From positions 32,001-96,000 of the forward strand of contig CM000434.1 of NCBI GenBank assembly GCA_000165345.1: DNA of 64,000 nt, given 5' to 3'. Position 1 is the stretch's first letter, and each line of letters starts with the position of its first letter. Position numbers and translations under genes: made by a program. The notes under the pieces are model-generated. The model saw only the letters and a list, made by a program, of their open reading frames with translations, did no database searches and was not told the origin of the DNA. Below, piece after piece: positions 18,474 to 57,177 of this stretch.

Positions 18474-19847
18474 TTAATGATGATGATGACGTCCACCAGT
18501 TATTGTAGTTTGAATAATTTCTTGTTGTTGTGAAGCCATTGTTGGTTGTACAACAACATTTCTTATGCAAGTACCATTAGCGTTAAGAGTTGTTCCAGAT
18601 GGGCAATTCAATGTTGATGGAACGATTGATTTACATAATCCTTTATCACCATCAGTATATCCAACTGGACATCCTAATTCACCAGGAACAGTTTGGGTAT
18701 CAAAGCATTTCTTTCTTGGGACTTCCTGAATAACTGGAATTGGTTGTACATATGTTTGTTGAACATATGTTTGAATTGGATAGTATGCATTATGATGATG
18801 ATGATGTGAAACACCTCTCTTTCCTAATCTTCTAGTAATAATTCCAGCTGGCTGATTGAAATTCTGAGATCCTTGTTCATATACATATTGGCTTCCATAA
18901 CCAAGACTCTTAACAGATTGTTGTGGTGAGTTTCTGAGTGAATAGTATTTACCATCATAGAATTCATTTGTTGGCTTTGGGGTTGGGTTTGGACATTCCA
19001 ATTCTGCTGGAACTGTAATAACTTCAACACACTCTCCATTTGCGACCATTGAGCCATTAGCACATCCTAAAGTTGGTTCAGTTGTTGATGTATATAAACA
19101 TCCAAATCCTGTCAAACTTTTTACTGCTCCTTCTGGGCATATCATTTGTGCTGGAACTGACTCACTTCTTGAGCATGTTCTTGAAACAACAGCCTGTGGA
19201 ACAACATAGCTTGTTTGATGATGATGATGTCCATGTCCATGTCCATGATGTGAAGTTGTTGTATATCTAACTGCAGTTGCAGCTGGAGTGCAATCATATA
19301 AAACTTCTCTTACACATCTTTCATTACTAACTAAAGTGAAATCAGGTGATGGACAGGTACTAATTGGGGATACACTCTTTTGTAAGATACATTCATTTTG
19401 CATTTCATTTAAAACTCCTTGCATACATTTCTTGATTGGTGCAACAGTCTTTGAGCCACTGCACATTTGACCGTCAGTTAAAGTAAATCCTGATGGGCAT
19501 ACAGCAACTGGGTCGATCTCAACATTCTTTTGACACATATTTTCACCTACCAATGTATATTCCACTGGACATTTCATGATTGGGTTTGTTGTCTTCATAC
19601 AATTAAAATCGCTCATTAATTCTCCTCCATTCAAGCAGACTCTTTCTGGCATTATCTCCTCTCTAGCAACGCATTGTCTATTTGAATCCAAAGTATATCC
19701 TGTTGGACACACCATTGTTGGAACGTTGACTACGGAGACTGTTGAAACTGCTTGTTGTTGATGATGATGATGATGATCTCCAGCATAACAACTTAGTGGC
19801 AACATTGCCATCATAATAATTGTATTTATCTTTCTTAACGATATCAT
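18474..19847 (-). CDS. Secreted Cys-repeat protein with four His runs and about 13 copies of C-P-x-G-[YF]-T-L-x(5-7)-C.
   Basis: ATG at 19847. The signal peptide is MISLRKINTIIMMAMLPLSCYA. His runs are GDHHHHHQQQ after the signal, SHHGHGHGHHHHQ and VSHHHHHN internally, and a GGRHHHH C-terminus. Repeats include CPTGYTLDSNRQC, CPVEYTLVGENMC, CPSGFTLTDGQMC, CPVGYTDGDKGLC and CPSGTTLNANGTC. Confidence 0.8.
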   Translation of the reverse strand: MISLRKINTIIMMAMLPLSCYAGDHHHHHQQQAVSTVSVVNVPTMVCPTGYTLDSNRQCVAREEIMPERVCLNGGELMSDFNCMKTTNPIMKCPVEYTLVGENMCQKNVEIDPVAVCPSGFTLTDGQMCSGSKTVAPIKKCMQGVLNEMQNECILQKSVSPISTCPSPDFTLVSNERCVREVLYDCTPAATAVRYTTTSHHGHGHGHHHHQTSYVVPQAVVSRTCSRSESVPAQMICPEGAVKSLTGFGCLYTSTTEPTLGCANGSMVANGECVEVITVPAELECPNPTPKPTNEFYDGKYYSLRNSPQQSVKSLGYGSQYVYEQGSQNFNQPAGIITRRLGKRGVSHHHHHNAYYPIQTYVQQTYVQPIPVIQEVPRKKCFDTQTVPGELGCPVGYTDGDKGLCKSIVPSTLNCPSGTTLNANGTCIRNVVVQPTMASQQQEIIQTTITGGRHHHH

Positions 19848-20130
19848 TTTTCTTTTAAACAAAAATTTTAAAAAAATTTTTCTTTATTGTGAATTCTTTC
19901 TTTATAACTAGATTTTATTAACAAATTAATTTAATTAAGACTGTTTAATACTAGTCAAAATTAAATTTATTTTAAAAATTAAATAAAAAAAAATTATTTT
20001 TATTTTTTTATTATTGTTATTTTATTTATTTAAGAAAATAATCAATAATAAAAAAAGTGACATAAATTTGTTTTATAACTACCATGTATCTGGTGTACTT
20101 CCTCTTATGACTAATTTCACATCATTTTTA

Positions 20131-20234
20131 TCCACATGAATGCATGCATGTAACGTGCACATCAAAATTTGCATACCGGTATTATGTTTTTTTTTGTTTA
20201 ATATTACTAATAATTACTAATTTGTCCACATGAA
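20131..20234. promoter_or_regulatory. Composite motif cluster: TCCACATGAA...CATGCATG...ACGTG...ATACCGGT plus a second TCCACATGAA.
   Basis: TCCACATGAA at 20131-20140 and 20225-20234, and ATACCGGT at 20173-20180. The cluster is about 280-390 bp upstream of the His/Cys gene start at 19847. The same bipartite motif recurs at four other loci. Confidence 0.4.
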
Positions 20235-20447
20235 TATTAATTATTATTGTTATTTAAATTAATAGTTACTAATATGAAATAATATACAAATGACGAATAA
20301 AAATTAATAGTAAAATTTGTAATTATTAGTAATGAATTAGTAATTATAATTAATTAAAAATAAAAAAAAAAAAAATACAAATTGAAATTTAAAGAGGAAA
20401 ATAAATACTGATAATGAGATTATATATATATCAATACAAATTTATTT

Positions 20448-23400
20448 TTAATTATTTTCCTTTTGAGGGTTATTCTTATCTAAATTAATGTTATTTAAAA
20501 ATATTCTTAATAACAATGGCATAGTCCATAAAGGTTTAATTAAATCTACTTCATGACACATTTTTTGTGAATAAGAAGGAACCACAGTTCTTCCAAATGA
20601 TTTCATTGAAAATATTCTTGTATTTGTAATGTTATATTTATCAATATTTTCAATTTTAAAATTACTAGTATTAAAGTAATCAAAATCAGGATATAAGTTA
20701 TCTTCAGTTGTGTTTTTAATTTCTAAATTCTCATCTTTCACATTATGTTCGGTAGATTCATGATTTATTGTATTATTTAATTCATTTATGAAAATTTCAT
20801 TATTAGATTGGTCCAACAATATTGAATTATTTTGATATTTTTCATCAATTTGTTGAACTTCTGGATTAGAATTATTTTTCATCTTTTCAGAAATTAATGA
20901 ATATAACTTAGTAATATTATATTCAAAAGGTCTGAATACATTTTCTGGAAATTTTGGAGGGCAATAGTAGTGAGTAAAAACTGTCTGCTTTGAAACACAA
21001 CGTGGGGGAGCCTTTCTAAAATGCTCTGGTGGCAAGAGTAATAAGGCTTCCTCATCTAACTTATAGCCTTTTGGACATTCAATGGTAAAATCTGTATAAC
21101 CCTTCATTTTACACGTATTAGTTGCTACTAATACGGTATTTTCAGGGCAAGATAGATATGGTTTTGCTGTAATGACCTTCAAACAAATAATTTTAATAAC
21201 ATAATCTGTTTTACCAATTATTGCATCATATAAACTTATTGGTGAAATAGGTAACTTTTTTTTCCCCTCTACATTTCGATTTATTAAATTAATTGATTCC
21301 AAATCTTCTATTAGTTGACGCCTTATAACTTCTTCAGAATTATTCTCATTACTTGTTTCATTTTTGATATTTGAATGCTCAATATTTGGAACTTGATTCA
21401 AAGTAATGAATTCAGTTATTACATTCTTTTTTGTACTTCCAAATGAAGGAATAATCGTTTCATTTTTCTCTAAATTTGTTTCCGTTTCATTCAACATACT
21501 AATATCAATGTTTTCCGAATCCATATCCTGAATATATTCAGGAAATAATGTATTCGAGATAGCAAGAGAATTATCAATTACTTCACTTGGATTAAATAAA
21601 GATTCTTTATCAATATTATCTATATCTTCCTTTGTTACAATATGAATTCCAGTTTTCTCAAAGTAATTTAATGGTTCTCTTAATGATATGAATGGAATCT
21701 CTTCTTTTGTTGTACACTTTGGTTGTAATGGCACTTTCATTACTTGTATACAAGTATCAAAAGGATTAATGAATTCGTGCCGGTATACTATAGGAGGATC
21801 ATTACCATTTGAAATATAAGCGTCATAAGAAACCGTACCTTTTGGGCATTTATAATCTACTACTACAACATCTTTGTACTCACAATAAGGTCTTGGACCT
21901 TTTTCAAACATCCATGAATGATTATAATCATATTTAAGGCTAAATGTACTATTTTGACAGAATGGAGCACCAATACCATTGTACTTAACCTCATCAGTTT
22001 CTTTCTTAAAGCATTTTATTTTTGTTTTAAAGTTTTGGAATTTTTTTGTAATTGATTTGCTTTGTATTCCCGATTCTGAATCATTCACTTTCCTTGTCAT
22101 TATTGGTTCTTCTTGGATAATCGGAGCATAATATTTATTAAAGTTTTCACTTGCTTCATTTAATTTTTCTTTTCTGTGTTCAACATCAGAAATATCCTTT
22201 TGGAAAAAATCCTCTTCTAATTGTGCTGTATATCCTTCCGGGCATTCATATTCTTTCACTACTTGATAAGCCATAATACATGTTTGCAAGTCATAGTAAA
22301 CACTTCCTTCAGCACATCCTGGAAATCCAGGTGCAAAAGTTTCGATTACACAAGTCTTTCTTGGTTCATTAAATACGAATGGCTCGTCACATTTTGGCAC
22401 TGAAGGCAAATACTTTCTTTGTTTAACATGGCAGCCTCCTCCACCTCTATGTGAACCCCATAACTTTGAGTGGGAATAGCTTAAAGGGCAAAATGCGACA
22501 GAGTCTGCATAAGTAATTGAAACACAACTTTTTATTTCATGGTCATACACTGAATTCAGGCCATTTGAAGGACAAATACCAATAATATCTAGTTCTGCTC
22601 CTGTTGGTCTGCTACAATAGGTTGCATTGTATGGCTGAATATTCAATAATGAGAATGTAGGTAGCATATAATCTTCCCTAGATATATTCAAATTTTTAAT
22701 AAGCTCATCTATTAGCATCAATTCTGCACTATCTCTTTCATTTGCGCATAGATTATATGTATTCTCATCCTTAGTATTCAAATTACTTAATACCATTTTT
22801 GGTATTAAAGTTATCAAGCTCCAAAATCCTTCAATTGAAAATCTTACCTTATTTTTCAGATTAATGTTATAATCATTGATTTTACTATTATTCCCACTAA
22901 AGTCTATTTCTTTCCAAGAATCTGAGTTTAATGCAGTATAATTCAACCAAAATTCACTATTATTCGACAATTTCTGATAATCGTATTCTGGGATTGATTT
23001 CCTCCATGGAGTAATATCCATTGGAACTCTATAAATACATTGTAATAAGCCATTCAAGGACCTGATTACTACATTACTTAATTGAGGAGCCAATTTTTCC
23101 AATAAATTATCGTCATCTGTATTTTCTTTTGTCTGATTTAATAATTTGGTTTCATTCAAATTACTTGTCGCATTACTTAAGTTTTCTTCATTCTCATTTT
23201 CTTTAATTTTTAATTCATTAGTACTTTCCACGTCATCTTTTTTATCCACATCAAATTCTTGTAATGCATGCATATTATCGAGAGGGGTCTGTAGATTCAA
23301 ATTTTGAAGCTCATTAATAGAGTTTGAATCATTTAAAAAAATTGAATTATTGTTAAATTGATAGGTTTCTGTGTTATTAATATTTATATCAGTATTAGTT

Positions 23401-23999
23401 TCATTTCCAAATAGTTTATCAAGTATTTTTAAAGTAGATATTGACCAATCACAGTTTGGAGGCAAATCAGGGATTGAAAAATTTGAATAATAAACAAACT
23501 CATATGAATCGTTATCTTTAGATGTTTCTGTCAAATCATTATTATCCATGTACTTCTTTTTAATTTTTTTAAAATCTATTCTACATTGGCAAGAACTTAT
23601 ATTTTTGTATTCTATTTCAAAGGGATATAAAATTGGGTTGCTTTGAATTATTTTGTTTGCAAGTATTAATCTTAGAGTATGAGTTAATGAAAATGGAGCA
23701 TTTTCAAATGAAGCTTTTGATCTTTGAATGATATTTCCATTATTCTCAACCAGATTAGAGAGACTGTTTTTCCCTTCTTGATTATTTATTGAATTTGCAA
23801 AAGAAGCTGGAAGCTTTTGTGCAGAGTAAATATTTGAATTGGAAATTGGTTTAAATGAAGGTATTGAACCTCCATCCGTATATGATGTACCACCAACCTG
23901 AATTGAAAGTCTGCGTAAGTTACTACTTATATTACATTGAGAAATATTTATTGAATTAAGAACAAATAATATTAGAATTATAAGTATTAACCCATTCAT
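20448..23999 (-). CDS. Large secreted protein (1183 aa) with Asn-rich low-complexity regions and the same CP.G[YF] Cys-pair repeats as its neighbour.
   Basis: Signal peptide MNGLILIILILFVLNSINISQC. Repeats include ICPSNGLNSVYDHEIKSC, CPEGYTAQ, YKCPKGTVSYDAYIS, LSCPENTVLVATNTC, IECPKGYKLDEE and YYCPPKFPENVF. It sits in tandem with 18474-19847 on the same strand. Confidence 0.8.
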   Translation of the reverse strand: MNGLILIILILFVLNSINISQCNISSNLRRLSIQVGGTSYTDGGSIPSFKPISNSNIYSAQKLPASFANSINNQEGKNSLSNLVENNGNIIQRSKASFENAPFSLTHTLRLILANKIIQSNPILYPFEIEYKNISSCQCRIDFKKIKKKYMDNNDLTETSKDNDSYEFVYYSNFSIPDLPPNCDWSISTLKILDKLFGNETNTDININNTETYQFNNNSIFLNDSNSINELQNLNLQTPLDNMHALQEFDVDKKDDVESTNELKIKENENEENLSNATSNLNETKLLNQTKENTDDDNLLEKLAPQLSNVVIRSLNGLLQCIYRVPMDITPWRKSIPEYDYQKLSNNSEFWLNYTALNSDSWKEIDFSGNNSKINDYNINLKNKVRFSIEGFWSLITLIPKMVLSNLNTKDENTYNLCANERDSAELMLIDELIKNLNISREDYMLPTFSLLNIQPYNATYCSRPTGAELDIIGICPSNGLNSVYDHEIKSCVSITYADSVAFCPLSYSHSKLWGSHRGGGGCHVKQRKYLPSVPKCDEPFVFNEPRKTCVIETFAPGFPGCAEGSVYYDLQTCIMAYQVVKEYECPEGYTAQLEEDFFQKDISDVEHRKEKLNEASENFNKYYAPIIQEEPIMTRKVNDSESGIQSKSITKKFQNFKTKIKCFKKETDEVKYNGIGAPFCQNSTFSLKYDYNHSWMFEKGPRPYCEYKDVVVVDYKCPKGTVSYDAYISNGNDPPIVYRHEFINPFDTCIQVMKVPLQPKCTTKEEIPFISLREPLNYFEKTGIHIVTKEDIDNIDKESLFNPSEVIDNSLAISNTLFPEYIQDMDSENIDISMLNETETNLEKNETIIPSFGSTKKNVITEFITLNQVPNIEHSNIKNETSNENNSEEVIRRQLIEDLESINLINRNVEGKKKLPISPISLYDAIIGKTDYVIKIICLKVITAKPYLSCPENTVLVATNTCKMKGYTDFTIECPKGYKLDEEALLLLPPEHFRKAPPRCVSKQTVFTHYYCPPKFPENVFRPFEYNITKLYSLISEKMKNNSNPEVQQIDEKYQNNSILLDQSNNEIFINELNNTINHESTEHNVKDENLEIKNTTEDNLYPDFDYFNTSNFKIENIDKYNITNTRIFSMKSFGRTVVPSYSQKMCHEVDLIKPLWTMPLLLRIFLNNINLDKNNPQKENN

Positions 24000-34228: not shown

Positions 34229-37200
34229 TCAATAAATATCACCAAAATCTATATTCAATAAACGAGAATGTCTTCCATAGCCATACTCATCTTCAATTCC
34301 TTTCTTCTTTATTGCATTCATTGATATACTGGTAGTCTTTCTGTTCTCATTATTATTATTATTATTATTATTACTTGTAATATTACCACAAGATCTTATT
34401 ATATCTTCATCATTTGGTATCTTTCTTTGAAGAGAAACTATGTGATCACCTAAAGATAAAGCAATACCTTGTGTCCTACTTCTTATGCGAACTGTTCCTG
34501 TTATCATCATTTTTGGCTCCTTTTCTACTCCTTCTCTTTGATTATTACTAACCAATTGTTTTTCTAAACTTATATTAACTAGAGCATCCTCTCCAAAAAT
34601 ACTTCTTGCATACAAATTTGTAGCAAAGAAACTTGACTTCTTATCCATCATTATTAAATGATTTGAATTATCACTCTCATTATTATTATCATTATTATTA
34701 TTACTAGTATTAGTATTACTACTCTTATAAGTACCGATATTTATACCGGTACCATTACCACCAATCATCATCATCATCATACTTTCAATACTACTATAAC
34801 CTACCAATGATAATTTAGTTTCTTTGATCAAATATTTTAAAAATTGTATAAAAGAGTCACAACTTGTATGTATTGGAATTTTATTTTCCCATTCAAATTC
34901 TGACCATAATTGTCTAAATAATGGACAAGGAATATTTGAATTAGTAATGAAATCAATCAAATCTATACTAATTTCATTCAATACCACAATATCATTCAAA
35001 CCTAATAATTGAGATGATGATGATGATACTGCTCCGGATCCTATTCCTCCTCCTAATCCATCATTTTGAGAATTTTTGGTTTGAAATGTAACAAAACCAA
35101 ACAATATTCCAGTCTCAATAGATTTTACTTGTGCAACAGAATAAACATGAATAGTATTTCCAGGATCTAAATGATTAATATTTTGTGGTTTTTCTATTAC
35201 TCTTAAATTTCCATAAGGATATAATTCAATTTGTACGTTTTGAACTGCTTTATAACTTTGATTAGTTACTATCAATTCTAATAATACATCTTGATGTTGT
35301 ACTTGAAGTATTGCTTCTATGTAAATTGGATCACTTAAACCTGTTATTGAATATATTCTTTTAGATGTATTAGATTGATCAATACTTCCTTTTTTTCCAT
35401 TATTCGAATTTTTTATATTTAAAGGATCCATTACCATACTATCATCAAAACATTCAAATTCATCATCATCATCATTAATCTGTGTTATATCCACATTATT
35501 TGAAAATACTTTTTCTCTAAATTGTCTAAAATTAACAACATTATATGGAAATCTTCTTGAGGAATTCTTATTTAAACGTTTATTCTCTTTAAATAACTCT
35601 CTCAACTTCATTCCACCATTAATTCCTCCTCCAAGTTCAATTTCATTCCCTTCAATTCCTTGAAACTTTGGAAATAATTTCCTTCTTAACATGATTGTTC
35701 TTTTACTTAATCTAATCAATTCCAAATCTTTAAGATCTTTTTCATTTCCTAATTCTTCTTCATTCTTTTTCAATTGATCCAAATCATTGTAAATTGATTT
35801 AAGTAAAATATAACAATGACTTAATCTATGAGTTGNATCNTNCNNNANNCCNCCANNNNTNTGNTCATTTAAACAATNNNNTAANNAGCANNCNNTANTN
35901 TNAANANNCTTNTTAAANGTANNTANNNCTAAATNCAANATATTTTCTTCNTNCTTATTTTTTCCTTGTTCATCTTTAATTCCAATATTATTAGAAAAAC
36001 ATAATAATTTTATTAATGAAACTCCAATACTTGCAATTAAAAGTAAATCTTCATCTCTAATAATAATATTTCTCAAGTTATTAGTAGTAGTAACTCCAAT
36101 ATTATAACAATTTCCACCTTCAATACCTGTTGAAGAAGAATTCAATTGGGAATTACTAGTTCCTAATAAATTTGTAGAATTCATATTATTATTAGCACCA
36201 TAATATCCATCAACATTACATTCCAAATCCTGAGTTGCATATGTTCCATCNTCCANNNNNNCNNNTNNNGTCNACTNNNTTTGTCATGNATAAGTATTTC
36301 CTACTCCTACCCCTCCTCTTTTAGCAATCTTATCATTATCAATAAAACTATCATTATTAGAATTATTATTATTATCATTATAATCATAATCATCATCATC
36401 ATTGTAATTATCATTTCCCATTAAACTTTGACTAGCTCTTCTATTTGGATGATTTCTTATTTTAATAGGTAAAGGTTCCAAAGAATTGTAAATTACATTA
36501 ATAATATCAATAATCTTTCTTTTATCATTTCCATATTCACATTCACTTAAAATCCATAAACAAGTTCTTAATGGTCTACTGAATTGTATTAATGATAAAT
36601 GAATTATTAATTGATCAACAATTTCATATTGATATTCTGAATAATTAACAACCATTTCTCTAAGAAATTGAATAATTTCATTAACAATAATAGGATTTGA
36701 ATTGGATAAAAATGTCATCATTGAATTAATCATAGGCTTAAAAGTAATTTTATGGTATTTTCTTGTAATCTCATGTAATGCTTTAATTAATATTAACTGA
36801 TAATTTTGAAATTGTTGAAAATCAGATAATTTCCCTCCTCCATAATTCATTGTTCTTAATCCACCAAAAGCTTCTGCTCCTCCCATTCCAAAACTATTAT
36901 CATCATTATTATTATAGTAATTAAAGTCAATATCTGCAGTAAAATGATAAGTTTGATTAAATTCATGATTACCAAATCCAGCAATATTATGATGATGATG
37001 ATGAACAGAGTTATTATTACTACTTCCATTATCATTAACATTATTATTATTATTATTATTATTACTATTGTTATTACTATTAAACTTATAATTTTGAAGT
37101 GAAATATCTTGTAAATGTTTTAATAGAAATTGAAATATATCCAAACAATTATTTTTAGTTAATAATGATGACAACACAATTTGAATAACTTTAATCTGTA

Positions 37201-45316: not shown

Positions 45317-45345
45317 TCATGTGGACAATATTACATAATACCGGT
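45317..45345. promoter_or_regulatory. Composite motif TTCATGTGGA-N11-ATACCGGT-GCATGC, with the first half inverted.
   Basis: It lies about 200 bp upstream of the ATG at 45540 and is flanked by CATGCAAAAAAAA and TGCATGCAAAAA repeats. Confidence 0.4.
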
Positions 45346-45539
45346 GCATGCAAAAAAAAAAAAAAAATGCAAAAATGCAAATGAGTGATATGAAAAGGAA
45401 AATAATTAAATAATAAAAAAAAATAACAATAATTTAAAAGTCCCCTTTTTTAATATTAAAAGAGGAAAGAAATAAAATATCATTTTTTAGATTGATATAG
45501 ATAATTTTCTAGGAAAGATATTTCAAGTAGAAAACAAAG

Positions 45540-46537
45540 ATGAAACTCAAGTATATTTCCAGTGGAATTCTAATAATAATCAGTTTATTTGGAAATTCTT
45601 ATCAAGTACAATTAAATTCAAAAGCTAAATCGGAATTTCCTTTAGCACTTGCAACCGGAATTCTTGGTAGTGTTGCTGAATCCATTAAAAATGGACCAAT
45701 TGGAGGAGCACTCATGATTCCTGTAAGTTTGGTTCAAAAATATTAAAAAAACAAGTTAAATTAATATTTATTTTTTAAAAAAATTATAGAAGGATAGAGT
45801 ACAAGGACCTTATGATGATTTATCAGAAGATCTAAATACCGCAACCACTGATATTAGATTGGAATATGAATCAGCAAAAAGAAGGATTTCCAAGTTTAGA
45901 GATGAGTTAATGGGGCCTGTTGATGAAGTACTACAAACTAAATTGGCTAGTAAGACTCAGGTATGTTATAATATTGTTTATAATTTCAATTTAATAATAA
46001 ACAATTTTAGTTAATGAGCAGATTAGAATACGTCGGGAAACTACTTAGAGCAGCTTATGATCAAGCTCATCCAGGTAAGTTATTGATAAAAATTAAAATT
46101 TTAACAAATATTAATATACCAATTTTTACAGATAAGGCTGGATTACCAATTGTATTAGTACAGAAGACATCAGCTGATGAAATGTTGTATCCACCAGAAG
46201 GATCAGATTTATCAGAATGTGCTGCTTCTGTCATTGAAGAAGCCGATGAAGAAATTGAGTTATTGGTAAGTTTTAAATTAACAAAATTTATATATTAATA
46301 ATTAATAATCACTTTTTAACCAATTTCTATATTTTTTTTTCTCAAAATGATTAACAGAGTCCACCAGATGTTACCAATCAAAATGAAATTCTTGATCAAA
46401 TGGATGATCAAGAAAGATATGAATATAGTTCAAATATGGCAGAATTCTTCAATCAAAAAGCTAATGCACTTAAAGAAGAACTTTCTAGTTCATTAAATAC
46501 TTGGGTTAACAATCAACTCATTCCAAGAAATGCATAA
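45540..46537 (+). CDS. Small secreted protein of about 243 aa encoded by 5 exons: join(45540..45722, 45790..45960, 46011..46074, 46132..46265, 46358..46537).
   Basis: Signal peptide MKLKYISSGILIIISLFGNSYQ. All four introns are GTAAGT/GTATGT...YAG, about 50-90 nt long and more than 85% AT. The exons are GC-richer than surrounding genes. The product is acidic and helical (...EYESAKRRISKFRDELMGPVDEVLQTKLASKTQ...). Confidence 0.65.
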
Positions 46538-52639: not shown

Positions 52640-53930
52640 CATGAAAAATTAAANGANNCTNTTGATATGATATGCATCGCAAATCATCATCTATTTGATC
52701 GTTTGTATTAATATTATTACTTTGAATAAATCTAGTAATATTATATTCAGTACATGTAATAAATTCTGTACCTTTAATATCCCAAGATATACAATTTGTT
52801 GGATAATTTGTTTGATTAATTATTGAATAAATTAATATTAATTTACCTCTTTTTTTCTCATATAAATCCCATCTCCATATACCTATCCAAGGTATACCAT
52901 TTATATCTTTAAATACTTGATTTATATCATCTTGCTCAGTTTTATTATCGTTATCATCATTATCATTATTATTATTATTATTGGTATTGGTATTAATATT
53001 ATTGGTATTATTTGTATTATTATTAATTATATTATTATTATTATTATTATTATTATTTATATGGTTTNGGGTATTATTTAGAGTATTATTTTGAATATTA
53101 TCGCCATTTATACCTATTATTATTACTCATTATATATTATTATTATTATTATTTAATTATTATTATTATCACTATAATTACCATTTTTGTTGAGCATTAT
53201 TATTATTACTAAAATAAATAAAAGAATCATGGCTTGTAGCAAGTATTNCATAATTTCTTGAGTAATTTGGACACCATTTAACAATCTAATACATAATTTC
53301 TTAATAATCCTGTTAATACATCATCCTCATTTTTATTATTATTTCGAGTATTAATATCTTTTGTATCATATAAACAATCCCATGTAGAAAATAATTCATT
53401 AGATTTTTTATCAATATTATCATCATTATTTATTTGATTATTATTAATAACATTATTACTATATTTGATCATCCATAATAGAATTTAATTTAATAAAAAT
53501 ACTTATCATACCATTATTTGAACCAATAGCAATCAAATTCATATTATATATATCATTTTCAATAATTGTTAAATTATTAATAAATGAAAATGATGTCATT
53601 TGATAACTATTGATTGATATATTACATGTAAATTGTTCTATGATTGACCAATTATGAAATAATGGTGAATCTTGACAAGAATATATTCTAAAATGACCAT
53701 CTTTTGTAAATACTATCAATGATATATTGATTGTTGATGTATTGATTGTTAATTTATTATTATTTTCATAATTTAATATAAAACTTGAATTAATTATTGT
53801 ATTTCTTGAATCTCTTAATCTTGCTGTCATATTACAAATTCCACCCAATTTATTAATATTATTATCAATATTATCGATATTATTTTGAGTATTATTATCA
53901 TTATTATTTAATAATGATTGTGAGGATGTA
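52640..53930 (-). CDS. Hypothetical protein, possibly WD-repeat-like. Its N-terminus is lost in the assembly gap.
   Basis: The minus-strand ORFs 53459-53848 and 53278-53472, plus a further open frame 52640-52960 (...WIGIWRWDLYEKKRGKLILIYSIINQ...CISWDIKGTEF...), read towards the N-gap. Scattered 'n' bases lie at 52645, 53068 and 53248. Confidence 0.3.
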
Positions 53931-53990
53931 TTTTCAATTGGTAATTTTAATATATCTCTATAATTTTTATTTAATAACCATNNNNNNNNN

Positions 53991-56481
53991 NNNNNNNNNN
54001 NNNNNNNNNNNNNNNNNNNNNNNNNNNNNNNNNNNNNNNNNNNNNNNNNNNNNNNNNNNNNNNNNNNNNNNNNNNNNNNNNNNNNNNNNNNNNNNNNNNN
54101 NNNNNNNNNNNNNNNNNNNNNNNNNNNNNNNNNNNNNNNNNNNNNNNNNNNNNNNNNNNNNNNNNNNNNNNNNNNNNNNNNNNNNNNNNNNNNNNNNNNN
54201 NNNNNNNNNNNNNNNNNNNNNNNNNNNNNNNNNNNNNNNNNNNNNNNNNNNNNNNNNNNNNNNNNNNNNNNNNNNNNNNNNNNNNNNNNNNNNNNNNNNN
54301 NNNNNNNNNNNNNNNNNNNNNNNNNNNNNNNNNNNNNNNNNNNNNNNNNNNNNNNNNNNNNNNNNNNNNNNNNNNNNNNNNNNNNNNNNNNNNNNNNNNN
54401 NNNNNNNNNNNNNNNNNNNNNNNNNNNNNNNNNNNNNNNNNNNNNNNNNNNNNNNNNNNNNNNNNNNNNNNNNNNNNNNNNNNNNNNNNNNNNNNNNNNN
54501 NNNNNNNNNNNNNNNNNNNNNNNNNNNNNNNNNNNNNNNNNNNNNNNNNNNNNNNNNNNNNNNNNNNNNNNNNNNNNNNNNNNNNNNNNNNNNNNNNNNN
54601 NNNNNNNNNNNNNNNNNNNNNNNNNNNNNNNNNNNNNNNNNNNNNNNNNNNNNNNNNNNNNNNNNNNNNNNNNNNNNNNNNNNNNNNNNNNNNNNNNNNN
54701 NNNNNNNNNNNNNNNNNNNNNNNNNNNNNNNNNNNNNNNNNNNNNNNNNNNNNNNNNNNNNNNNNNNNNNNNNNNNNNNNNNNNNNNNNNNNNNNNNNNN
54801 NNNNNNNNNNNNNNNNNNNNNNNNNNNNNNNNNNNNNNNNNNNNNNNNNNNNNNNNNNNNNNNNNNNNNNNNNNNNNNNNNNNNNNNNNNNNNNNNNNNN
54901 NNNNNNNNNNNNNNNNNNNNNNNNNNNNNNNNNNNNNNNNNNNNNNNNNNNNNNNNNNNNNNNNNNNNNNNNNNNNNNNNNNNNNNNNNNNNNNNNNNNN
55001 NNNNNNNNNNNNNNNNNNNNNNNNNNNNNNNNNNNNNNNNNNNNNNNNNNNNNNNNNNNNNNNNNNNNNNNNNNNNNNNNNNNNNNNNNNNNNNNNNNNN
55101 NNNNNNNNNNNNNNNNNNNNNNNNNNNNNNNNNNNNNNNNNNNNNNNNNNNNNNNNNNNNNNNNNNNNNNNNNNNNNNNNNNNNNNNNNNNNNNNNNNNN
55201 NNNNNNNNNNNNNNNNNNNNNNNNNNNNNNNNNNNNNNNNNNNNNNNNNNNNNNNNNNNNNNNNNNNNNNNNNNNNNNNNNNNNNNNNNNNNNNNNNNNN
55301 NNNNNNNNNNNNNNNNNNNNNNNNNNNNNNNNNNNNNNNNNNNNNNNNNNNNNNNNNNNNNNNNNNNNNNNNNNNNNNNNNNNNNNNNNNNNNNNNNNNN
55401 NNNNNNNNNNNNNNNNNNNNNNNNNNNNNNNNNNNNNNNNNNNNNNNNNNNNNNNNNNNNNNNNNNNNNNNNNNNNNNNNNNNNNNNNNNNNNNNNNNNN
55501 NNNNNNNNNNNNNNNNNNNNNNNNNNNNNNNNNNNNNNNNNNNNNNNNNNNNNNNNNNNNNNNNNNNNNNNNNNNNNNNNNNNNNNNNNNNNNNNNNNNN
55601 NNNNNNNNNNNNNNNNNNNNNNNNNNNNNNNNNNNNNNNNNNNNNNNNNNNNNNNNNNNNNNNNNNNNNNNNNNNNNNNNNNNNNNNNNNNNNNNNNNNN
55701 NNNNNNNNNNNNNNNNNNNNNNNNNNNNNNNNNNNNNNNNNNNNNNNNNNNNNNNNNNNNNNNNNNNNNNNNNNNNNNNNNNNNNNNNNNNNNNNNNNNN
55801 NNNNNNNNNNNNNNNNNNNNNNNNNNNNNNNNNNNNNNNNNNNNNNNNNNNNNNNNNNNNNNNNNNNNNNNNNNNNNNNNNNNNNNNNNNNNNNNNNNNN
55901 NNNNNNNNNNNNNNNNNNNNNNNNNNNNNNNNNNNNNNNNNNNNNNNNNNNNNNNNNNNNNNNNNNNNNNNNNNNNNNNNNNNNNNNNNNNNNNNNNNNN
56001 NNNNNNNNNNNNNNNNNNNNNNNNNNNNNNNNNNNNNNNNNNNNNNNNNNNNNNNNNNNNNNNNNNNNNNNNNNNNNNNNNNNNNNNNNNNNNNNNNNNN
56101 NNNNNNNNNNNNNNNNNNNNNNNNNNNNNNNNNNNNNNNNNNNNNNNNNNNNNNNNNNNNNNNNNNNNNNNNNNNNNNNNNNNNNNNNNNNNNNNNNNNN
56201 NNNNNNNNNNNNNNNNNNNNNNNNNNNNNNNNNNNNNNNNNNNNNNNNNNNNNNNNNNNNNNNNNNNNNNNNNNNNNNNNNNNNNNNNNNNNNNNNNNNN
56301 NNNNNNNNNNNNNNNNNNNNNNNNNNNNNNNNNNNNNNNNNNNNNNNNNNNNNNNNNNNNNNNNNNNNNNNNNNNNNNNNNNNNNNNNNNNNNNNNNNNN
56401 NNNNNNNNNNNNNNNNNNNNNNNNNNNNNNNNNNNNNNNNNNNNNNNNNNNNNNNNNNNNNNNNNNNNNNNNNNNNNNNNN
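53991..56481. other. Assembly gap of about 2.5 kb of N, flanked by low-quality sequence with scattered n at 56482-56960.
   Basis: A direct run of n. The ORFs at 53914-56511 and 53967-56504 in the track are poly-X artefacts of this gap. Confidence 0.99.
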
Positions 56482-57177
56482 AANTNCCCAGGNAAAATTC
56501 CCAAATTTTAAAAAATTTTTAAAAAAGGATTANTNAAAAANTATTTNCTTNCCCNTTTCNTCCCCGGGGAAATCNAGGAAAAANTCNAAATCTCTTTGGA
56601 AAAGGAAANTTTAACCTNTCGANGGTATCCCCTTTTTTTCCCNTTTTTANNCGNNTNNAAAAAAAAAAGNTTANAACCATTATANCCCNTCCTTGGCCCT
56701 TTAAANTAAAATTANNGCTTTAAAAANTNNNAAAATTTTTTTTTAAAANAANAATTTTNGACNTTAATTNATATTAANAAAANNAAAATTCCCCCATTGG
56801 GGCNCAAATTCTNTTTNTTTTTTTTTTGGTTATATTGATAGTGATAANTNGCATGNTTATTNCAATTTTGNCAAGTAATTTAATAAATTAATATTTTAAT
56901 TTTGATTAATCATCTAAATTAATAANTTCTTTTTGGTNCTNGTTGATTATNACTTGATTCATATTTAGTATGNCTTTTATGATTACTATTTCTATGCTTA
57001 GAATTCTGATGATAATCTTCTGGACTATTATCATGATGTTTATGATGACTACGATGATTATTACTATGACCATGATGAGTATGGTGATTATGATGATAAT
57101 GATTATAATGACTTTCTGATCTATTACTTGATATAGAATCATCATGAATATGTTTCTTTCTATTATTTGAATGATTA

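Follow-up and report, generated by a model that had tools for sequence, protein, structure and literature searches.

The closest described systems are the Cryptosporidium oocyst wall proteins COWP1 to COWP9 (Spano et al. 1997; Templeton et al. 2004), a family which, according to the summary in PMC4514997, carries repeats of type I and of type II with six cysteines each, the type II repeats alternating with stretches of histidine; the repeat definitions of the two original papers are used here second-hand from PMC4514997. Such proteins are customarily described as 'Cys- and His-rich'. Expression of the family peaks late in infection, at 48-72 h in vitro, and COWP8 and COWP9 share this peak. Here, we analysed a stretch of 64,000 nucleotides of Cryptosporidium parvum chromosome 6 (called the window below), in which two adjacent genes, assigned in the following to cowp9 and cowp8, encode secreted proteins with periodic cysteines.

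Both products were characterised experimentally by Bacchetti et al. 2025 (PMC12548878), who found that COWP8 and COWP9 tagged by CRISPR (clustered regularly interspaced short palindromic repeats) editing localise to the oocyst wall. According to that paper, COWP8 is expressed only in macrogamonts (female gamonts), where it appears in puncta resembling wall-forming bodies, is secreted into the oocyst wall after fertilisation, and lies in the inner wall layer by immuno-electron microscopy. COWP9 was observed only in the wall of tagged oocysts, the sequence of storage and secretion being shown for COWP8. COWP8 is expressed last of the COWPs and is among the most abundant, while COWP9 is weakly expressed (PMC12548878) and was not detected in wall proteomes (PMC3734150). 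Since the oocyst wall confers chlorine resistance on Cryptosporidium, any principle of its assembly is of applied interest.

Both genes match named oocyst wall proteins of Cryptosporidium parvum exactly

In an exact-sequence look-up, both products were residue-for-residue identical to GenBank entries of C. parvum Iowa II: the small protein to EAK87345.1/Q5CPJ0 ('oocyst wall protein 8', COWP8, cgd6_200) and the large one to EAK87346.1/Q5CPI9 ('oocyst wall protein 9', COWP9, cgd6_210). Homology searches returned the same two names from several Cryptosporidium species. The 21.4 kb around the pair are 99.995% identical to the 1.3-Mb record CP029785.1, and the neighbours are as expected, the gene order being MCM6 (cgd6_240), APG6/Beclin, a G-patch protein, COWP9, COWP8 and a PH-domain protein. 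The CRISPR designs of PMC12548878 give Gly452 for cowp8 (cgd6_200) and Lys1180 for cowp9 (cgd6_210), and our sequence agrees on both residues as well as on the place of cowp9 directly upstream of cowp8. Because the match to the database records is exact, misidentification is very unlikely, and the genes are almost certainly cowp9 and cowp8, two of the nine Cryptosporidium oocyst wall proteins.

A sequence-only reading of this locus had described two adjacent genes on one strand, and both are indeed present, on the minus strand. The length of 462 residues which it gave for the small protein follows from the TTG at 19862 used as the start in the list of open reading frames (ORFs); the first ATG, at 19847 and in an A-rich context, gives the annotated 457 residues. 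It had further supposed an unrecognised family and had proposed checks on spore or stalk matrix, which imply a social amoeba. The exact matches to C. parvum rule out a dictyostelid origin. The family itself dates from 1997 and 2004, and both of its members treated here were localised to the wall in 2025, so that the repeats belong to a family already described, which refutes the supposition on the reading's own terms. Since both genes and their family are published, as are the localisation to the wall and the COWP8 knockout, the finding is real but already known. That wall proteins were correctly picked out from raw sequence makes the locus usable as a positive control.

An old C. parvum model, CAD98622.1 (1761 residues, 'oocyst wall protein precursor, possible'), appears to fuse COWP8 and COWP9. 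Because of this model the two proteins were pulled into one 90%-identity cluster with COWP9 as its representative, and for the same reason the COWP8 homology search listed no COWP8 of C. parvum or C. hominis.

Periodic cysteines are conserved in both secreted proteins

The signal peptides were assessed heuristically, by inspection and by Kyte-Doolittle hydropathy in 19-residue windows, with 1.6 as the mark. The best mean in COWP9 is 2.28, and all of its windows at or above 1.6 begin at residues 1-7. The N-terminal window of COWP8 has a mean of 1.24, which is below the mark, yet it is the highest in the protein. In neither protein did any window outside the N-terminus reach 1.6. These profiles are consistent with cleaved signal peptides and the absence of a membrane anchor in both proteins, and the literature concurs on the signal peptide. 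The description of the pair as secreted wall proteins with Cys repeats is upheld.

Of the 25 cysteines of COWP8, one belongs to the signal peptide; the other 24, in the mature chain, follow one another at 12, 12, 12, 10, 12 residues and so on. Eighteen of the 24 consecutive gaps measure 11-14 residues, against 2.8 +/- 1.6 (maximum 10) in 5000 shuffles, and all 24 mature cysteines are invariant across the orthologues of six Cryptosporidium species. COWP9 has 13 gaps of 11-14 residues, against 2.1 +/- 1.4 (maximum 8) in shuffles, and all its 29 cysteines are invariant across 10 orthologues. Here, 22 of the 29 fall into three blocks which span about 300 of the 1183 residues, in arrays that are short and partly irregular; the remainder of the protein is Asn-rich and Cys-poor, with 32 N-x-S/T sequons. 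The claimed two-cysteine unit was borne out as a periodicity and overstated as a motif: the strict pattern C-P-x-G-[YF]-x-L-x(5-8)-C has two matches in COWP8 (residues 47-59 and 117-129) and none in the whole COWP9 protein. What actually recurs is a unit of ~24 residues, made up of a 'C-P-x-G-[YF]..C' hairpin and, in alternation with it, a 'C-x11-C' linker. In AlphaFold2 (AF2) models, the Cys blocks of COWP8 are predicted as all-beta strings of short hairpins, with a predicted local distance difference test score (pLDDT) of 70-80, and the His and Tyr/Gln spacers as disordered; confidence is low for residues 289-377.

The last region lies within a Cys-free spacer (residues 286-380; YDGKYYSL..., GYGSQYVYEQGSQ, AYYPIQTYVQQTYVQ) reminiscent of the dityrosine-linking Tyr-rich wall proteins of Eimeria and Toxoplasma. 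This spacer is absent from distant COWP8-like proteins. In COWP9, residues 23-461 (22617-23933) and 1123-1170 (20490-20633) are Cys-poor and well conserved, with many invariant aromatic residues and prolines in 10 orthologues; these regions, to which no Pfam model matched, may be uncharacterised domains.

COWP8 is related to COWP1 and to wall proteins outside Cryptosporidium

With a profile built from six orthologues of COWP8, a search of 1.84 billion representative proteins found 211 relatives (cluster representatives) at E<=0.001. Among them is CpCOWP1 (P0067), matched at E=1.1e-13 with 67 bits over 16 stretches, as well as proteins of Vitrella and Chromera named 'Oocyst wall protein' in UniRef; from Colpodella and Piridium, transcriptome proteins without a name also match. 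What had first been noticed in the raw sequence, a resemblance to the type I repeat of apicomplexan COWPs, is therefore real: the two products are identical to named COWPs and the COWP8 profile recovers CpCOWP1. The profile also matches a giant bacterial cluster (P0055/P0183, Pseudoalteromonas sp. T1lg23B, WP_105169424.1) at E=5.5e-15 over 13 stretches, so that either Cys-hairpin repeats have converged here or an EGF-like module is shared.

A Pfam scan of COWP8 and COWP9 gave only a partial FOG_N match and sub-threshold matches to cEGF, CPW_WPC and Antistasin; no COWP-specific model exists in that database. The cEGF (PF12662) match of COWP8, on CPTGYTLDSNRQC, reaches 21 bits and so stays below the cut-off of 26.6; in COWP9 there is no such match. 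CpCOWP1 reaches one Pfam model only, again cEGF, with 51.7 bits. The assertion that the unit does not resemble EGF is thus not supported. The C-terminal hairpin of Pfam cEGF resembles the C-P-x-G-[YF]-x-L-x5-C hairpin, and database names include 'growth factor receptor cysteine-rich domain' (for COWP1) and 'EB module'. The FOG_N match (Folded gastrulation N-terminus, PF15888) scores 35 bits against a cut-off of 27 on COWP8 residues 406-445 (18513-18632) and is seen in five of the six orthologues. It spans only positions 4-43 of the 111 of the profile and, in COWP8, covers one Cys hairpin and a Q-rich tail. This match is probably partial and non-homologous, and could mislead automatic annotation. 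A sequence search of solved structures with the COWP8 profile returned only His-tag artefacts, at E>0.2.

A proposed disulfide-stapled wall layer is the best-supported role of the pair

The best-supported reading of these data is that COWP8 and COWP9 form arrays of disulfide-stapled hairpins which are cross-linked into a layer of the wall; we infer both the cysteine pairing and the structural role of COWP8. The macrogamont would translate both proteins with a signal peptide and store them in puncta like wall-forming bodies, from which they would be secreted into the oocyst wall after fertilisation. The periodic cysteines would then staple strings of small beta-hairpins, similar to sub-modules of EGF, and these strings could yield a disulfide cross-linked protein layer resistant to proteases and chemicals.

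Several observations weigh against this reading. The confidence of the AF2 models is low overall, with a pLDDT of 58.5 for full COWP8 and 66.4 for its block 1, and fold searches with these models gave nothing significant and thus no fold assignment. The odd cysteine counts of blocks 1 (13) and 3 (5) of COWP8 imply either a disulfide between these two blocks or cysteines free for intermolecular cross-links. The sequence link of COWP9 to the family is weak: the best non-orthologue of the COWP9 profile has 23.6 bits (P0142), COWP8 orthologues score 7-11 bits, and CpCOWP1 gives no domain match. Finally, deletion of cowp8 left wall thickness, bleach resistance, strength and stiffness in nanoindentation, infectivity and transmission all unchanged (PMC12548878), so that a load-bearing structural role of COWP8 is not demonstrated. 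COWP8 is dispensable under laboratory conditions. As for COWP9, its place in the family rests mainly on the Cys periodicity, the published assignment and the wall localisation; it is low in abundance and has diverged strongly, and long Asn-rich spacers dilute its Cys blocks to a degree unusual for the family.

Histidine runs of COWP8 keep their positions

COWP8 contains four His runs exactly as the sequence-only reading had described them, at residues 25-29, 200-210, 348-352 and 454-457 in the 457-residue numbering. After cleavage of the predicted signal peptide, mature COWP8 would begin G-D-HHHHH and end HHHH. All 22 histidines of the protein lie in Cys-free segments and none in the Cys blocks. 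All six Cryptosporidium species, among them C. muris, which is deeply diverged (50% identity to the protein of the window), have the four runs in the same positions, with run lengths that vary between species. Two COWP8-like eukaryotic proteins from Logan assemblies (P0077 and P0108), with 25-29% identity, have the same block order, and most of their cysteines align; they keep three of the four His positions, namely the mature N-terminus, the site behind the conserved 'DCTP' with which block 1 closes, and the C-terminus. The gene of P0077 (L006, 8940-10283) lies on an intron-containing contig of 14.9 kb (SRR31860988), which also carries split myosin-head exons. A gregarine relative, P0006, has no His runs, and runs of at least four histidines occur in 6 of the 149 family representatives sampled, COWP1 among them.

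Metal binding by these putative sites, as originally suggested, is plausible. Our best guess is that the runs, placed in flexible Cys-free segments, could provide a metal- or pH-dependent association surface for packaging or wall assembly. Protonated histidines would keep COWP8 soluble in acidic storage organelles; after secretion, neutral pH and Zn, Ni or Cu would let the runs bridge molecules by reversible, non-covalent cross-links in the wall. The segregation of histidines from the Cys blocks, the retention of positions down to P0077 and P0108 and the rarity of such runs elsewhere in the family speak for functional modules of this kind. However, the literature searched reports no metal or pH experiment on COWP8, loss of cowp8 leaves mechanics and bleach resistance normal, the gregarine relative lacks the runs and their lengths differ among species. 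Functional association modules are thus a possible explanation, which we hold tentatively and on the doubtful side.

The runs could also be products of CAT slippage, tolerated as low-complexity sequence in disordered linkers and without specific function. All His codons read in the four runs are CAT, arranged as unbroken repeats of CAT or CAT/GGA, and the species differences in length, the predicted disorder and a whole-gene knockout without phenotype would all fit such an origin. Retention of the positions at 50% identity in C. muris and at 25-29% in P0077 and P0108 is, however, unexpected for neutral slippage, and histidine is completely excluded from the Cys blocks; we consider slippage without function rather unlikely.

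Extending the association-module explanation, one might envisage an old orthogroup of 'His-capped' wall proteins reaching beyond Cryptosporidium, in which metal- or pH-switchable His links would drive release from wall-forming bodies and end-to-end assembly, a conditional role that knockout assays would miss. This proposal is speculative and, in our estimate, unlikely. Histidine is unmentioned in the PLoS Pathogens paper on COWP8 (PMC12548878), and a literature search for a link between COWP histidines and metal returned only the 'Cys- and His-rich' descriptor, its results being partly swamped by 'cowpea'. The positional conservation of the runs seems to be new, as it is not discussed in the literature searched. 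In practice, the His runs of COWP8 could explain background of anti-His or Ni reagents on oocysts.

A main ligand role is improbable and local duplication is not supported

COWP8 and/or COWP9 might act mainly as adhesins or ligands, by EGF-like or growth-factor-receptor-like Cys modules, and not as a scaffold. In a 2026 preprint, recombinant COWP6, which has growth-factor-receptor Cys-rich domains, binds host cells with a dissociation constant of ~37 nM; the weak cEGF similarity of COWP8 and the intact wall mechanics of its knockout point the same way. However, COWP8 is seen only in macrogamonts and ends in an inner wall layer that is not exposed, and oocysts of the cowp8 knockout infect mice normally. 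We therefore regard a main role in adhesion as quite improbable, and the cross-linked wall layer stays the preferred reading.

The pair had also been thought to have arisen by local duplication. A BLASTP comparison of COWP8 with COWP9 gave 29 bits over 48 residues, which is one repeat-sized match, and alignments of the two sets of orthologues compared by hhalign gave a probability of 45% over 44 columns. Against the COWP8 profile, orthologues of COWP9 reach 6-15 bits (10 for COWP9 itself), compared with 67 for COWP1 and 89-107 for the wall proteins of chromerids and colpodellids (95-107 for those of chromerids). COWP8 is thus far closer to COWP1 and to the chromerid wall proteins than to COWP9, with which it shares similarity over about 45 residues only, and local duplication is not borne out. 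By the profile scores, BLASTP and hhalign, COWP8 and COWP9 are not each other's closest relatives. Likewise, Mullapudi et al. 2007 reported that the promoters of COWP genes do not align apart from a shared motif. C. muris has the same tandem order and flanking genes; the arrangement therefore predates the radiation of the genus, and a duplication, if there was one, would be ancient and cannot be demonstrated. That the locus represents a previously unrecognised matrix or coat family, created by tandem duplication on the spot in an organism that forms spores or a stalk, can practically be dismissed: the genes are adjacent on one strand with Cys repeats in both, and a Pfam scan by itself gives nothing specific for want of a dedicated COWP model, but the products match named C. 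parvum proteins of an experimentally localised family exactly, their mutual similarity is confined to about 45 residues and C. muris already has the tandem order.

Upstream motifs and further features of the window

Motifs similar to AP2_1 sites, together with A[T/A]G[T/A]GGA.A, are the published upstream motifs of class II (late) COWP genes (PMC3734150). Upstream of COWP8, within the 600-bp intergenic region, TGCATGCA is by its sequence a candidate AP2_1 site (bound by cgd2_3490), accompanied by ATGTGGA-type motifs, and it is also found upstream of C. muris COWP8. The exact 12-mer CATAATACCGGT has two copies in the 64 kb, where 0.09 would be expected, and each of the three TGCATGCA sites of the window is accompanied by an ATGTGGA-type motif no more than ~20 nucleotides away.

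TCATGTGGACAA, CATAATACCGGT and TGCATGCA recur, tightly packed, as a promoter-like module at 45317-45352 on the plus strand, ~190 bp upstream of an ORF of 68 residues (45540-45746, plus strand) with an N-terminus like a signal peptide. This ORF is called in automatic Logan assemblies only and not on records of >1 Mb; it could therefore be an exon, or else a small gene that has escaped annotation and is regulated together with COWP8. Inside the coding sequence of COWP9, at 23242-23272 on the minus strand (residues ~243-253), TGCATGCA is followed 13 nucleotides on by TGATGTGGATAA, which repeats the motif pair of the COWP8 promoter, probably by chance.

The window is AT-rich, with a GC content of ~19-38% in 2-kb windows outside the assembly gap, and its long uninterrupted ORFs suggest intron-poor genes. 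The gap in this chromosome copy is a run of 2500 N at 53982-56481. Many scattered single N calls at 35836-36289, 52654-53248 and 56484-56973 mark stretches of low quality. The features of the two genes are collected in Table 1.

Table 1. Positions of the COWP8 and COWP9 features within the 64,000-nucleotide window.
Feature	Position	Strand	Remarks
COWP8 (cgd6_200) coding sequence, 457 residues + stop	18474..19847	-	identical to EAK87345.1; start ATG 19847
COWP8 predicted signal peptide, residues 1-22 (MISLRKINTIIMMAMLPLSCYA, then GD)	19782..19847	-	most hydrophobic 19-residue window; C-x-A|G conserved in 6 species
COWP8 His run 1, HHHHH, residues 25-29	19761..19775	-	two residues past the predicted cleavage site
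COWP8 Cys block 1, residues 47-186, 13 Cys	19290..19709	-	spacing mostly 12; all Cys invariant; region matching other oocyst wall proteins
COWP8 His run 2, HHGHGHGHHHH, residues 200-210	19218..19250	-	after the conserved 'YDCTP' end of block 1
COWP8 Cys block 2, residues 225-285, 6 Cys	18993..19175	-	the Cys count of one type I repeat
COWP8 Cys-free Tyr/Gln-rich spacer, residues 286-380	18708..18992	-	10 Tyr and 11 Gln; holds His run 3
COWP8 His run 3, HHHHH, residues 348-352	18792..18806	-	in the Tyr/Gln spacer
COWP8 Cys block 3, residues 381-427, 5 Cys	18567..18707	-	
COWP8 His run 4, C-terminal HHHH, residues 454-457	18477..18488	-	
COWP8 promoter motif cluster TCATGTGGACAA, CATAATACCGGT, TGCATGCA, TCATGTGGATAA	20128..20233	-	within the 600-bp intergenic region
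COWP9 (cgd6_210) coding sequence, 1183 residues + stop	20448..23999	-	identical to EAK87346.1; Lys1180 fits PMC12548878
COWP9 predicted signal peptide, residues ~1-21 (MNGLILIILILFVLNSINISQ)	23937..23999	-	by hydropathy
COWP9 Cys block A, residues 462-586, 10 Cys	22242..22616	-	all Cys invariant in 10 orthologues
COWP9 Cys block B, residues 663-762, 6 Cys	21714..22013	-	irregular spacing
COWP9 Cys block C, residues 939-1013, 6 Cys	20961..21185	-	sole stretch with detectable COWP8 similarity

Comparison with known wall and matrix proteins

The oocyst wall proteins (OWPs) of coccidia and chromerids (TgOWP1-7, Eimeria OWP2 and OWP6, and those of Vitrella and Chromera) have homologous type I Cys repeats, which the COWP8 profile matches at E=1e-20 to 1e-26. 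Like the COWPs, they have roles in the wall of the oocyst or sporocyst, according to PMC4514997; in contrast to the COWP family, they are given there without type II repeats, and some are placed in the outer layer or in the sporocyst wall.

With the COWP family, both COWP8 and COWP9 share the signal peptide, a Cys spacing of ~10-12 residues, repeats like type I and the localisation to the wall. COWP8 differs from COWP1 in having only type I-like blocks, with its His runs in separate spacers, whereas the His stretches of COWP1 alternate with type II repeats. None of the COWP8 runs was found between short six-Cys type II units; they are located in long Cys-free spacers, and membership of the family does not depend on this feature of COWP1.

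Association by histidine and metal, of the kind considered above for the COWP8 runs, is used by mussel byssal preCols and by the Nereis jaw protein. Although the terminal domains of the preCols and Nereis Nvjp-1 have no sequence relationship to COWP8, they are secreted and stored in secretory granules and carry His-rich segments that are terminal or lie between folded blocks, and COWP8, likened to them by analogy only, may share this layout.

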